17,384 nucleotides of DNA from a virus (lineage: Duplodnaviria > Heunggongvirae > Uroviricota > Caudoviricetes): positions 1 through 17,384 of the IMG/VR virus record IMGVR_UViG_2675903433_000036. One strand, given 5' to 3'. The first letter of the stretch is position 1, and each line of letters opens with the position of its first letter. The notes under the pieces are model-generated. The model was not told where the DNA came from. It ran no database searches and saw nothing but the letters and a program-made list of their open reading frames with translations. A program made the translations under genes and the position numbers. Shown one piece after another: positions 458 through 15,853 of the stretch.

Positions 458-487
458 GCCCGCGTCTCCCTGCGCGGGCTTTTTTTG
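458..487 (+). terminator. Rho-independent terminator-like hairpin with T7 tract (plus-strand sense)
   Basis: Stem GCCCGCG (458-464) pairs with CGCGGGC (473-479) around an 8-nt loop, followed by TTTTTTT (480-486). No convincing plus-strand gene lies upstream within the window. Confidence 0.3.
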
Positions 488-497
488 TCCATAAGAA

Positions 498-518
498 AGC
501 CCCTCCGGAGAGGGGCTG
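498..518 (-). terminator. hairpin with weak U-tract on the minus strand, convergent with the 458-487 hairpin
   Basis: GCCCCTC / GAGGGGC stem around a CGGA loop; on the minus strand it is followed by TTTCTTAT. Could end read-through from the tRNA-like element. Confidence 0.25.
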
Positions 519-753
519 GAGAGTGGCGCTATGTGCCATTGCATGGTGCCGGGTGCCTCCCGGTGAATTCAGTACCAGCACCTGAATCCGCGATTATCCC
601 ATATACCTACTCGCTGATTGCCCCTCCGCACAGGGGGATTCACCATGCCAGTTTCTTTTAACAAACTCCCCGCAAACCAGACAACAGTCAACCGCCTGAA
701 TTGTGAGACATTTAAAAAAAAGGCCCGCAAAAGCGAGCCAGGGAAAATAAGTG

Positions 754-829
754 TGGCGCGTTGTACTGGATTCGAACCAGCGACCTGGCGATTATGCGTC
801 GCTCGCTCTCACCACTGAGCTAAAGGGCC
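754..829 (-). tRNA. tRNA-Ile2-like (CAU anticodon, ileX/ileZ-like) element, probably a degenerate pseudo-tRNA
   Basis: Minus-strand 76-nt sequence GGCCCTT-TA-GCTC-AGTGGTGA-GAGC-G-AGCGA-CGCATAA-TCGCC-AGGTC-GCTGG-TTCGAAT-CCAGT-ACAACGC-G-CCA has canonical D and T arms (GTTCGAATCC) and a CAT anticodon. The 3' acceptor strand ACAACGC does not pair with the 5' GGCCCTT, and position 33 is G rather than the near-universal U. Confidence 0.45.
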
Positions 830-2890: not shown

Positions 2891-3046
2891 TTACTCCTCA
2901 GGTTCGTAAGCTGTGAAGACAGCGACCTCCGTCTGGCCGGTTCGGATTCGTACCTCGCAGAGGTCTTTCCTCGTTACCAGTGCCGTCACTATGACGGTTA
3001 AACAGATGACGATCAGGGCGACTAACATCGCCTTTTGCTGCTTCAT
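2891..3046 (-). CDS. hokD: Hok/Gef-family membrane toxin (type I toxin), HokD/RelF-like
   Basis: 51 aa, MKQQKAMLVALIVICLTVIVTALVTRKDLCEVRIRTGQTEVAVFTAYEPEE: single TM helix plus the conserved C-terminal hok motif, nearly identical to my recollection of RelF/HokD. SD AAGGAG 9 nt upstream of ATG at 3046. The 70-aa ORF-track version is an in-frame upstream extension. Confidence 0.85.
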   Translation of the reverse strand: MKQQKAMLVALIVICLTVIVTALVTRKDLCEVRIRTGQTEVAVFTAYEPEE

Positions 3047-3225
3047 AGCCTGCTTCTCCTTGCCTTTCGGCACGTAAGAGGCTAACCTACGTTTGTGAAG
3101 CATAGATTGGGCCTCAGATTAATGTTAAGCGTCTTGCAGGACGCGTAATGTTAACTGGGGCTTTTCTCTATCTGCCTTTTGGTGTTCATGCCTGAGGCAG
3201 ATAGCCTCAAGCACCCATTATGATT

Positions 3226-8999: not shown

Positions 9000-9005
9000 C
9001 TATGT

Positions 9006-9467
9006 ATGAAAAAAACACGCGAAGTGATTGCAACTCCAGAAGCGAGCAAGAATTTAAAAGCCGCATGGAATGCAAGAAAAAAAGAGCTGAAGCTGACTCA
9101 AGAGCTGGCGGCTGAGTTGTTGGGATTCGAATCTCAAGGCACCGTTAGCCAGTATCTGAACGGCAAGATACCGGTAAATACCGACGCTGCGCTAAAATTT
9201 GCGGCTCTGTTAAAGGTAAAACCAGAGGACATTCGAGAAGACCTTAAAGACTTAATGAATTATGTAAGATCATCAGATACTTATGATGATAGCTTTTCAG
9301 GCAAAGGATGGAGGCTGGTCAATGAAGAACAGGCAGAGTTACTTAACCTCTTCGAGATTCTACCTGCGTCAGAAAAAGCCAAACTCCTTAACCAGCTACG
9401 TGGACTAAACAAGCTCTATGAGGAAGCCTTCGAGAACATGCTGGCACTAAAGAAACGTAACCAGTAG
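9006..9467 (+). CDS. racR: prophage repressor, XRE-family HTH, non-LexA-like (RacR-like)
   Basis: 153 aa; HTH LTQELAAELLGFESQGTVSQYLNGK; no peptidase S24 domain. Divergent from the Cro-like gene and followed by a terminator. Symbol is by analogy. Confidence 0.6.
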   Translation: MKKTREVIATPEASKNLKAAWNARKKELKLTQELAAELLGFESQGTVSQYLNGKIPVNTDAALKFAALLKVKPEDIREDLKDLMNYVRSSDTYDDSFSGKGWRLVNEEQAELLNLFEILPASEKAKLLNQLRGLNKLYEEAFENMLALKKRNQ

Positions 9468-9548: not shown

Positions 9549-9649
9549 GTGTAACTAATATTTTTCCCTTGAAAAAACATTTACATAGTTACTAAATCAA
9601 AAGCATCATACTCCATACTGTTGACTTAAAATATCCGTGTTACTAATAT
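9549..9649 (+). promoter_or_regulatory. strong pL-like promoter with three copies of a GT(T/A)ACTAAT operator-like motif
   Basis: -35 TTGACT (9621-9626), 17-nt spacer, -10 TAATAT (9644-9649). Motif copies: GTGTAACTAATAT (9549-9561), GTTACTAAAT (9588-9597), GTGTTACTAATAT (9637-9649, overlapping the -10). Confidence 0.55.
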
Positions 9650-9720
9650 CCTCATCAAGAACAGCACGGCGCTGTAGGTTTTAGTTCCGCCACCCGGCGT
9701 TAAGGGGAAATGAGGTCAAC

Positions 9721-9873
9721 ATGGATACTATCGATCTTGGCAACAACGAATCTCTGGTATGTGGCGTGTTTCCCAATCAGGACGGCACATTCACCGCCAT
9801 GACGTATACCAAAAGCAAATCGTTTAAAACCGAAGCTGGCGCACGTCGCTGGCTTGCCAAAAATACCAGCTAA
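9721..9873 (+). CDS. small early-left protein (50 aa; YdaF/YdaG-like by position)
   Basis: SD GAGGT 6 nt upstream of ATG 9721; MDTIDLGNNESLVCGVFPNQDGTFTAMTYTKSKSFKTEAGARRWLAKNTS. Not in the ORF track. Confidence 0.55.
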   Translation: MDTIDLGNNESLVCGVFPNQDGTFTAMTYTKSKSFKTEAGARRWLAKNTS

Positions 9874-10070
9874 ACAATTTATTGGATTAATTCAATATTC
9901 TTGCTGTAGGGGTATAGCCGAGGCCACCAAAGCCCGGAGGTGGTGAAATAAAACCGGGCACAACACGAAGGCGCATTTCCGATATCCATAAAGAGTCGGT
10001 CTTGTCTGTTAAATTTAAATGGTGGGAGTGCGCCTCCGGTTGTAAATAACGACATTGCTGTGTGTAGTCT

Positions 10071-10115
10071 TGGCGGCATCAGTTCTACTCCGTGGCTGCC
10101 CTGCCGCCCCTTTTT
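10071..10115 (+). terminator. terminator-like long-loop hairpin (tL1-like) within a 400-bp structured leader
   Basis: GGCGGCA (10071-10077) pairs with TGCCGCC (10103-10109), followed by CCTTTTTAAAG. Confidence 0.3.
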
Positions 10116-10578
10116 AAAGTGAATTTTGTGATGCGGTGAATGCGGCTGAGCGCACGCGGCACAGTTAAAAGCATCAGTGTTATGGGTGGATTATCCGGCG
10201 TTAATTGTTAACTGGTTAACGTCACCTGGAGGCACCAGGCACCGCATCAACAAAGTTCACTTCAGTGATGAAAGGTGAGAGAAAATGATGGATGTAGCTA
10301 TTGAAAACCAGAACGGGTGGAATTATAGTGCACCTGCACCTCATAAAACGGGTGCCGGGATTTGCACCCCGATGATCACTAGAGCGCATAACCGCGCCAA
10401 AGCGTTTTTTTTATGCGTAAAGCGCAGCCACATTCAGATTATGGTGGGGCGTATGGGGCCGTTTTCGGGCGGGCCGGATTCTCTAGTGACCGGTAGTGCA
10501 AACCCTGTACGTCTCACCACCCATGAGATTTGCACCTCCGGTGGTGAGTTTACCAACTTATCACTAGAGGCTGCCATC

Positions 10579-11133
10579 ATGGCTACTATCCCTACCCTTT
10601 CTCACCCTGACGTAACCATCGAAAATGGTCGTGCTGTCACTACGTCTGTTGCAGTTGCAGAGTTTTTCCGCAAGCTGCATAAAAACGTCATTCAAAAAAT
10701 TGAAGCTCTGGAATGTTCCTCAGAATTCACTGAGCTTAATTTTAAGCCAAGTGAATACACCGACTCAACCGGGCGCAAACTCCCAATGTACCAAATCACC
10801 AAAAACGGCTTCGTTTTCCTGGTGATGGGTTTCACTGGCAAAAAAGCCGCTGCATTCAAAGAGGCCTACATCGCTGAGTTCGACCGCATGGAAGCAGAGC
10901 TACGCCAGAATAATACCACTCCCACAAACAAAATCATTCCGGGCGATGGGCGCACTCTGGTTGTTCGCTTCGACAAATTCGGCAACGTCGAATTCACTGA
11001 AACCGTTCCTGATGGCGCTCTCGTCTGTACCCTGGACACTTTCCGCCTTTATCTGGAGAAACAGGGCTGGACTCTTGTAAACCGAAGCGCAATTAAAAAT
11101 ATGACCGTCGAGCAGTTGCTGAGTATTAAATAG
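10579..11133 (+). CDS. Rha-family phage regulatory protein (Phage_pRha domain)
   Basis: Matches my recollection of the Rha domain: AVTTSVAVAEFFRKLHKNVIQKIEAL...ELNFKPSEYTDSTGRKLPMYQITKNGFVFLVMGFTGKKAAAFKEAYIAEFDRMEA. Internal ATG 10579 with SD AGAGG is preferred; the ORF-track start at 10285 adds about 98 compositionally odd, repeat-containing residues. Confidence 0.65.
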   Translation: MATIPTLSHPDVTIENGRAVTTSVAVAEFFRKLHKNVIQKIEALECSSEFTELNFKPSEYTDSTGRKLPMYQITKNGFVFLVMGFTGKKAAAFKEAYIAEFDRMEAELRQNNTTPTNKIIPGDGRTLVVRFDKFGNVEFTETVPDGALVCTLDTFRLYLEKQGWTLVNRSAIKNMTVEQLLSIK

Positions 11134-11179: not shown

Positions 11180-11401
11180 ATGATTGCTCATCACTTCGGA
11201 ACTGATGAAATACCACGTCAGTGTGTGACTCCTGGCGATTATGTTCTTCATGAAGGTCGGACATATATCGCCTCGGCAAACAATATTAAAAAGCGAAAAC
11301 TTTATATTCGTAGCCTGACTACAAAAACATGCATTTCTGACTGCATGATTAAAGTCTTCCTCGGCCGTGATGGTTTACCTGTAAAGGCGGAGTCATGGTA
11401 A
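11180..11401 (+). CDS. kilR: KilR-like small protein (host-killing / cell-division inhibitor of Rac-type prophages)
   Basis: 73 aa with strong SD AAGGAG. Symbol from recalled Rac length and position. Confidence 0.5.
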
Positions 11402-14747: not shown

Positions 14748-15424
14748 CACCGGACATTATCCTGCAGCGTACCGGGATCGACGTGAGAGCTATCGTACAG
14801 GGGGATGATGCGTGGCACAAATTACGGCTCGGCGTCATCACAGCTTCAGAAGTTCACAACGTGATAGCAAAACCCCGCTCCGGAAAGAAATGGCCTGACA
14901 TGAAAATGTCCTACTTCCACACCCTGCTTGCCGAGGTTTGCACCGGTGTGGCTACGGAAGTTAACGCTAAGGCGCTGGCCTGGGGAAAACAGTACGAGAA
15001 CGACGCCAGAACCCTGTTTGAGTTCACTTCCGGCGTGAATGTTACTGAATCCCCGATCATCTATCGTGACGAGACTATGCGCACCGCCTGCTCTCCAGAT
15101 GGTTTATGCAATGACGGCAACGGCCTTGAGCTGAAATGCCCGTTCACCTCCCGGGATTTCATGAAGTTCCGGCTCGGTGGTTTCGAGGCCATAAAGTCGG
15201 CTTACATGGCCCAGGTGCAGTACAGCATGTGGGTGACGCAAAAAGATGCCTGGTACTTTGCCAACTATGACCCGCGTATGAAGCGTGAAGGCCTGCATTA
15301 TGTCGTGGTTGAGCGGGATGAAAAGTACATGGCGAGTTTTGACGAGATGGTGCCAGAATTCATCGAAAAAATGGACGAGGCACTGGCTGAAATTGGTTTT
15401 GCATTTGGGGAACAATGGAAATGA
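14744..15424 (+). CDS. exo: Exo (Red-alpha) 5'-3' dsDNA exonuclease
   Basis: 226 aa, near-identical to recalled lambda Exo ([16 protein letters not shown]...[36 protein letters not shown]...); ATGA overlap with bet. Confidence 0.92.
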
Positions 15425-15651
15425 GCGCAGCCATAAAGCTCACAGGAGAAAAACCAGTGCTATACACAAAAGTCAAACCATGTCCGTTTTGTGGTTGTCC
15501 ATCAGTAACGGTGAAAGCCATTTCAGGATATTACCGCGCAAAGTGTAACGGATGCGAATCCCGAACTGGCTATAGTGGAAGTGAAAAAGAAGCACTCGAA
15601 AGATGGAATAAACGAACTACTGGAAATAATAATGGAGGTGTTCATGTATAA
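15415..15651 (+). CDS. ralR: Lar/RalR-like restriction-alleviation protein (zinc-ribbon, CPFCG motif)
   Basis: [47 protein letters not shown] matches my recollection of the Lar family. Start at 15415 or 15421, the latter overlapping the exo stop. Confidence 0.5.
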
Positions 15652-15853
15652 AATTACTGTCACTATTGAAAAGGAAGGTGGCACTCCTACTAACTGGACA
15701 AGATATTCAAAATCTAAATTAACGAAATCAGAATGCGAAAAAATGCTCTCTGGGAAAAAAGAAGCAGGCGTTTCCAGAGAGCAGAAAGTAAAACTGATAA
15801 ATTTTAATTGCGAGAAACTTCAGTCCTCGAGAATTGCATTGTATTCAAATTAA
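15644..15853 (+). CDS. ydaC: small hypothetical protein (YdaC-like, 69 aa)
   Basis: ATG 15644 preceded by GGAGGTG; [35 protein letters not shown]... AT-rich. The ORF-track 92-aa version begins upstream in the overlap with the Lar-like gene. Confidence 0.45.
   Translation: MYKITVTIEKEGGTPTNWTRYSKSKLTKSECEKMLSGKKEAGVSREQKVKLINFNCEKLQSSRIALYSN

Follow-up and report, generated by a model that had tools for sequence, protein, structure and literature searches.

The window, the whole 17,384-nucleotide stretch of DNA analysed here, is a Rac-like lambdoid prophage of Escherichia coli, and a locus of E. coli CAU16175 that is 98.7% identical to it adjoins ttcA, the Rac attachment site. From around position 9000 its genes run on the plus strand, starting with a DicA/RacR-like HTH repressor gene (9006-9467; matches to HTH_3 and the DicA family), its terminator and, 3' of that terminator, a candidate pL-like promoter (9621..9649; TTGACT-17-TAATAT, from a consensus scan), which would be a pL-type promoter that is probably repressed in the lysogen. 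The first gene of the operon encodes a DUF1391 protein of the YdfA/YdaF family (50 aa, 9721..9873, plus strand; Pfam PF07151, 100.7 bits). Between its stop codon and the ATG of a 282-aa open reading frame (ORF) lies a non-coding gap of 411 nt on the plus strand (9874-10284), at the end of which a Shine-Dalgarno-like AAAGGTGAGAG and that ATG can be read in the sequence (10271..10287). The 282-aa ORF (10285-11133, plus strand) is annotated in RefSeq as Rha family (Ash-Rha), and its frame stays open in nine diverged variants, including across a 3-nt indel. It is followed on the same strand by kilR (11180-11401, from a family profile scan), ydaE, a RecE-like gene, recT and a YqaJ exonuclease gene, then by ralR (15415-15651) and, further along, the integrase gene, while cro and replication genes of the ydaS/ydaT/ydaU type lie to the left of the repressor gene on the minus strand. 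A sequence-only reading of this DNA had placed the gap in the early-left operon, as a non-coding stretch after the first small pL gene, and we confirmed both this assignment (3' of the repressor gene and a promoter-like site, 5' of kilR, the RecE-like gene, recT, ralR and int) and the exact bounds that it had given. It had also recognised no N-like gene, in agreement with our Pfam and NCBIfam scan of ORFs, which was not exhaustive and yielded none. Compared to the Rac prophage of E. coli K-12, where sieB lies on the opposite strand between ydaF and kilS (L002, 1967-2500), sieB is absent from positions 9874-9923 of the window, and without it the DUF1391 gene runs almost straight into sequence corresponding to the upstream region of KilS. 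A Rha module sits between the gap and kilR, which begins ca. 1.06 kb downstream of the sRNA cassette described below.

Several neighbouring RNAs deserve mention in their own right. The N-terminal 98 aa of the 282-aa ORF match Pfam Phage_ASH (49 bits), and the DNA of this ORF also matches isrK (10336-10412, 62 bits) and the C4 antisense RNA (10437-10524, 78 bits); this overlap reflects either dual-use DNA or a protein family that was built on translated RNA genes. The best promoter match of the region (TTGAAA-17-TATAGT, 10 of 12 positions, 10301-10329) ends 7 nt before the start of isrK, suggesting that it is probably the own promoter of isrK inside the annotated ORF. Two type I toxin-antitoxin RNAs are encoded elsewhere on the minus strand, sok at 3041-3216 (120 bits; the equivalent site of CAU16175 has hokD annotated) and the antitoxin RNA RalA at 15650-15828 (219.6 bits), opposite ralR.

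The gap had been described as GC-rich and rich in stable hairpins. The first attribute does not hold, given a GC content of 47.7% versus 47.0% for the whole window, whereas the second clearly does: the gap folds with -147.3 kcal/mol (z -3.78), which beats each of 100 dinucleotide shuffles, and is thus more structured than expected by chance. A 7-bp stem followed by a T-run is present as proposed, with 10072-10078 pairing to 10102-10108 and five U residues at 10111-10115. The proposed CCACC/GGTGG stem likewise exists (9924-9928 with 9939-9943) and forms part of a conserved motif of ca. 35 nt, but its fold energy is unremarkable (z -0.23). Two structures that had not been mentioned before are the strongest of the gap, namely a long hairpin spanning 9961-10048 (z -3.96) and a multi-helix element that extends from 10120 to ca. 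10259/10262 (z -4.64).

In this part of the gap lies what seems to be a small RNA. Positions 9899-10262 share 87% identity with the stretch between sieB and kilR in K-12 Rac, and an alignment of 9965-10069 with MG1655 matches at 104 of 105 positions, covering the 5' half of kilS (b4833; annotated as ncRNA at 1418405-1418502 of NC_000913.3) together with its upstream flank. Bar et al. 2021 (PMC8175672) identified KilS by Hfq RIL-seq, with yncL as a partner, and then detected it by northern blotting, and its transcription start (1418502) and RNase E site (1418471) have been mapped in K-12 (PMC8175672, Table S6). While homology, structure and covariation were computed here, the start, the cleavage site, the Hfq association and the northern blot thus come from work on K-12. 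Transferred to the window, the KilS start falls on 10022 and the RNase E site on 10053/54 (between GAC and AUU), and both lie on identical sequence. By our own reading, an extended -10-like TGtTAAATT on the plus strand (10007..10015) ends 7 nt before the start equivalent and would be a plausible extended -10 element for it. The predicted primary transcript on the plus strand is ca. 94 nt long (10022..10115), as delimited by the KilS alignment and by a plus-strand match to Rfam DicF (RF00039, 10059-10109) that scores 54.7 bits against a gathering threshold of 48.

These two delimitations point to different families. The first 50 nt of the predicted RNA agree with KilS at 49 positions, and the seed, the U-tail, the downstream leader and the operon position in a Rac-like prophage are also shared. 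Window and MG1655 have the first part of the terminator stem in common, differ from 10085 to 10108 and agree again from the U-tract onwards, so that the terminator hairpin is not that of KilS, and the loop reads UUUUUUUCUUGAAGUUCGGCUGAUGU in KilS but UUCUACUCCGUGGCUGCCC, of DicF type, in the window. The genomic setting differs as well, since the window lacks the upstream sieB and since KilS lies in the immediate 5' UTR of kilR, whereas the 282-aa ORF intervenes here. The hairpin itself (10072..10108, plus strand) is a DicF-type terminator that agrees with canonical DicF, the ftsZ-repressing sRNA of the Qin prophage, at 33 of 37 positions and is predicted to be slightly more stable (-17.0 vs -15.9 kcal/mol). 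Its loop retains CUCCG, the anti-Shine-Dalgarno core with which canonical DicF acts on ftsZ, and a related locus (L010) carries a compensatory GGTGG/CCACC change in this hairpin. Like at dicF loci, the 3' U-tract is followed by the AAAGUGAAUUUUGUGAUGCGGUG helix strand and the leader, in the same type of operon with a DicA-like repressor and a DUF1391 gene. However, three of the four differing positions fall into the ftsZ-pairing stretch, no dicB gene lies downstream, and the 15 nt before the hairpin do not match canonical DicF: its single-stranded 5' part UUUCUGGUGACGUUU, which pairs with xylR, is replaced by a KilS/RprA-type seed, with AUUGCUGUGUGUAGUC at the place of the xylR-pairing end UUUCUGGUGACG (PMC5069750). 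The match to KilS up to the stem and the DicF-type hairpin that follows indicate that the element is a hybrid, composed of a KilS 5' half and a DicF-type terminator hairpin. Of the options that the sequence-only reading had offered, a riboregulatory leader or sRNA is hence the one borne out, both by the above-threshold Rfam match and by near-identity to a validated K-12 sRNA and its flank.

Cleavage at 10053/10054 would place the seed AUUGCUGUGUGUAGUCUU (10054..10071, plus strand) at the 5' end of a processed RNA of ca. 62 nt. All 18 nucleotides of this seed agree with rprA of K-12 and with the stretch of the Rfam RprA consensus that is conserved best; the same stretch begins the 47-nt processed form of RprA (PMC9262595). 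It also occupies the same place in RprA, directly 5' of the terminator hairpin, and is preceded in both by AACGA(C)A, which carries the RNase E-type cut site. By our own estimate, the probability of sharing an 18-mer by chance between a gene of 108 nt and the window is around 5e-5, making coincidence very unlikely. The window sRNA is nevertheless not a member of the RprA family (RF00034; 28 bits vs a threshold of 70), with only the seed and its flank in common; it lacks the rpoS-pairing 5' domain, has a different terminator and is encoded by a prophage, whereas RprA is Rcs-controlled. RprA is reportedly the subject of work by Papenfort in 2015. In the literature accessible to us, which was limited, we found no report of the identity between KilS and RprA or of an RprA-like prophage sRNA, and it looks as if this seed identity has gone unreported.

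The seed is not tied to one hairpin. The downstream leader was compared at 125 sites, namely in the window, in four annotated records and in 120 stretches of IMG/VR that had been retrieved by means of the leader itself, and the sRNA cassettes before it combine few seed types with several hairpin types. The canonical DicF seed goes together with the DicF loop, mostly before dicB, while the RprA-like seed is combined with the Rac loop, with a third type of loop, with further hairpins or, in the window and in CAU16175, with the DicF loop; CCAUGUUGAUU is a further seed type. Overall, the RprA-like seed recurs with at least four unrelated hairpins in the fetched loci and is also found 3' of STnc100-like bodies in other loci. 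That the seed is kept while the hairpins change argues that it is under selection.

Upstream of the sRNA, the CCACC/GGTGG stem belongs to a 5' motif on the plus strand (9924..9959) of the form CCACC-N3-GCCCGG-A-GGTGG-(A-rich)-CCGGGC, of which 12 conserved sequence variants were seen among the fetched loci, canonical DicF loci included. The motif allows two overlapping helices, which would form either a pseudoknot or alternative folds. A single compensatory change in its GCCYG/CRGGC pairing was counted by eye because the MAFFT alignment had put two types of the second stem out of register. Directly 5' of the motif there are only weak -10-like hexamers, none of which passed the consensus scan for promoters. 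The long hairpin that follows (9961..10048, plus strand) consists of a conserved 16-bp base and a variable top, which in K-12 carries the promoter region of KilS. Four pairs of its base are changed on both sides yet still paired across nine sequences, while the interiors have lengths of 65, 62, 61, 60 and 59 nt and are unrelated in sequence between loci.

This hairpin also bears on the proposal that the real feature of the region is protein-coding, be it the ATG-started 66-aa ORF on the minus strand (9879-10079) or a small plus-strand ORF. Long stop-free stretches do exist in two minus-strand frames of most homologues, but the open frame shifts between loci and its longest stretch shrinks to 42 aa in one of them (L120), the 66-aa ORF has no Pfam match even at E<=1, and RefSeq annotates no CDS at this site in K-12 or in near-identical genomes. 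Moreover, the homologous hairpin interiors, besides being unrelated in sequence, differ in length by non-multiples of three, which excludes a conserved reading frame on either strand. We therefore consider a coding function highly improbable and dismissed the 66-aa ORF as a gene; the view that the gap acts as RNA, which a conserved small coding frame would have undermined, is not affected by it.

Downstream of the terminator, the multi-helix element on the plus strand (10120..10259, 140 nt) doubles as the 5' leader of the downstream gene. It is closed by a basal helix of ca. 19 bp (10120-10138 with 10240-10259), and the region 10099-10268 matches Rfam STnc100 (RF02076) with 41.8 bits (E 1.9e-7), i.e., below the threshold of 47. 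STnc100 is in turn related to PasD sRNAs according to a recent preprint. The STnc100 model can be aligned to the element in its closing helix, in the segment GGUGAAU...GCGCACGCGG and in the hairpin CCNGGAGGCACCNGG, and the two share a multi-helix structure with covariation support. Unlike STnc100, however, the window element has its basal helix extended to 19 bp, a length that the closing helix reaches in DicF- and KilS-linked copies, and has no STnc100 terminator, which makes it an internal leader rather than a free-standing sRNA. A core of ca. 115 nt precedes quite different genes, including dicB in phage Tritos, kilR in K-12 Rac, terB in phages P7 and D6 and the Rha gene of the window. Across 35 distinct sequences, with five helices counted (four by RNAalifold and one added by eye), 97.2% of cells are paired compared to 30-38% in slid controls, and nine pairs show changes on both sides, a count on which 7 of 500 shuffles were as good; none of the 500 shuffles was as good on four of the five measures. 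The structures of the gap are thus conserved and covarying, and the suggestion that it holds an RNA element stands up to this comparison.

Two further sets of sequences resemble this element. A canonical STnc100 copy (487-677, minus strand; 138 bits) forms a late-region counterpart of the gap element and adjoins a partial tRNA-like match (764-823, minus strand; 37 bits, model positions 7-64). In other prophages, a unit of ca. 250 nt combines the 5' CCACC motif, an STnc100-like body, the RprA-like seed UGCUGUGUGUAGUC and a GGCGGUACCAG terminator; we located it at L005 (3483-3709, minus strand) and L007 (7969-8225, plus strand; just downstream of a CI-like repressor gene) as well as in L025, L036, L044 and L093. 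This unit scores under the Rfam STnc100 threshold and may be a PasD-type sRNA.

At the Qin dicF locus, RNase III is known to process dicBF read-through transcripts into a DicF of 72 nt that extends 19 nt beyond the 53-nt end (PMC5069750). In the window, a 3' end at this distance from the terminator comes to lie within the first strand of the basal helix (10120-10138). We thus read the element as an RNase III processing site and 5' mRNA leader, with the basal helix as the probable site of cleavage by extrapolation from Qin.

The sequence-only reading had likened the region to the nut and put elements of phages lambda and HK022. In this scenario, RNA polymerase on its way from pL would be altered by a cis-acting, put-like RNA, made of the 5' motif and long hairpin or of the STnc100-like body, and could then proceed beyond the DicF-type terminator, the isrK terminator and the Rho sites as far as recE/recT, xis and int in the absence of N. 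The need for such a mechanism might be seen in the lack of an N-like protein and a nut site in the ORFs scanned and the window, respectively, and in the silencing of Rac genes by Rho (PMC4150792). It would also fit that structured, covarying elements are conserved upstream of varied cargo genes in early and late operons and that, by our own reading, the 5' motif of L007 lies in the intergenic stretch 3' of the CI-like repressor gene just after two operator-like repeats. Yet the window shares with nut and put only the position in an early-left operon leader and has neither boxA nor boxB, N protein or put-like sequence. On the plus strand of 9650-10600 there is no boxA (CGCTCTTA-like), and the 14 matches across the window compare to 13.9 expected; with no N family match among the ORFs scanned, nothing of lambda type is apparent. 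A blastn search across all phage records yielded 41 with a match to the region, none of them HK022, word-7 BLAST against the HK022 early regions returned only 10-12-mers without homology to putL or putR, and no put model is among the Rfam matches. The likeness to nut or put is thus not borne out. Beyond these absences, the STnc100-like body lies 3' of the sRNA terminator and so cannot help polymerase past it, and at L005- and L007-type loci the body is directly followed by a terminator that ends an sRNA. STnc100 and PasD have been reported as Hfq-bound trans-acting sRNAs, the own transcription start of KilS lies inside the long hairpin, and terminator-like sites occur in the operon at chance frequency (11 found vs 8.5 expected). 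Together, this makes an antitermination function unlikely in our view. The Rho terminator trac was also considered as a feature of the gap and discarded, because this known terminator, which silences kilR, lies inside racR and outside of the region (PMC4150792).

The exact 87-nt variant of the hybrid (10036-10122, at least 99% identity) occurs in only about 68 of 5426 complete E. coli genomes, Shiga toxin-producing and O157:H7 strains included; 2011C-4251, CAU16175 and O157:H7 ECP19-598 are examples of carriers. Around 1460 genomes match at least 80% of the 87-nt query and are, among the matches listed, of KilS type (81.7% identity), while the largest identity class, ca. 2400 genomes at 90-95%, appears to consist of DicF-type hairpin matches. 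RefSeq has no annotated feature under the match in any genome among the matches listed, near-identical copies included; kilS is annotated in MG1655 (NC_000913.3) but not in K-12 ER3413 or in the genomes among the matches listed. Separately, we note that the E. coli DicF hairpin and leader are found at 87-89% identity in Aeromonas phage AP1 (MT713136.1, 249929-250125, near the end of a 254-kb record) and Actinobacillus phage vB_Apl-pPE4 (PP818812.1, 5839-6001), which could be contamination, misassembly or real transfer.

One may also ask whether the region is anything but a decaying mosaic junction, left without present function when a Rac-like prophage lost sieB and gained the isrK-C4-Rha module through recombination. 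The absence of sieB relative to K-12 Rac, the Rha module between region and kilR, the resemblance of the sRNA to a recombinant of two families and the small number of genomes with the exact variant could all be accounted for in this way. A decaying sequence would, however, be hard to reconcile with compensatory changes that hold all helices intact, with a seed, RNase E site and promoter region that are unchanged compared to the expressed K-12 copy, and with an intact hairpin that is if anything more stable than that of canonical DicF. We therefore give this explanation little credence.

Instead, we consider it likely, and hold this with good confidence, that the gap is a trans-acting sRNA cassette of KilS/DicF hybrid type with a conserved processing leader and not an antiterminator. 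The ca. 94-nt Hfq-type sRNA would have two sources, its own weak promoter as mapped for the K-12 homologue KilS and the processing of transcripts from the upstream early-left (pL) promoter. RNase E cleavage would then yield the ca. 62-nt form with a free 5' end serving as pairing seed, and its 3' end would be set by the DicF-type intrinsic terminator and U-tail. Transcripts that pass this leaky terminator might fold into the STnc100/PasD-like element, and RNase III cleavage of its 19-bp basal helix would release the sRNA from the downstream mRNA, which carries the genes for the Ash-Rha antirepressor, for KilR and for recombination. For the prophage in the window, we infer the expression of the sRNA, the RNase III site and the targets.

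The sRNA would act in trans by base pairing through two candidate regions, the KilS/RprA-type seed for targets such as yncL and the DicF-type loop with its CUCCG anti-Shine-Dalgarno core for ftsZ. The seed can form ten consecutive pairs with the yncL mRNA just past the stop codon (-18.7 kcal/mol), which 25 of 1000 shuffles equalled; this agrees with the RIL-seq partner of KilS and is modestly better than shuffles, though weak evidence by itself. Inside the window, no site complementary to the seed was found beyond chance. Repression of ftsZ may have been lost, given that three of the four differences from canonical DicF among the 37 hairpin positions lie in the ftsZ-pairing stretch. When whole sRNAs or their loops were paired to the ftsZ leader with RNAduplex, the predicted duplexes were unrealistically long and did not distinguish between KilS, canonical DicF and the variant of the window.

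Sequences similar to dicF were reportedly described by Faubladier and Bouché in 1994, and EHEC is said to carry four dicF copies, as described by Melson and Kendall in 2019. The hybrid will be called DicF by Rfam-based pipelines though it lacks the 5' pairing end of DicF, so that RNAs with distinct sets of targets may be lumped together when dicF copies are counted in pathogenic strains. The combinations of seeds and hairpins indicate that prophage sRNAs diversify by module exchange, and, given the identity between the seeds of KilS and processed RprA, a core stress sRNA may have a mimic or a competitor in an RNA of prophage origin. We tentatively put forward the more doubtful idea that prophages of the Rac/Qin group share a modular scaffold, made of processing hairpin, seed, terminator and RNase III leader, in which seeds are swapped and one widespread seed copies that of processed RprA. 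If true, KilS-type sRNAs and the KilS/DicF hybrid would let the prophage tap the target set of host RprA within the Rcs envelope stress response, and the hybrid could join RprA-type targeting with DicF-type control of ftsZ in a single RNA of ca. 62 nt.
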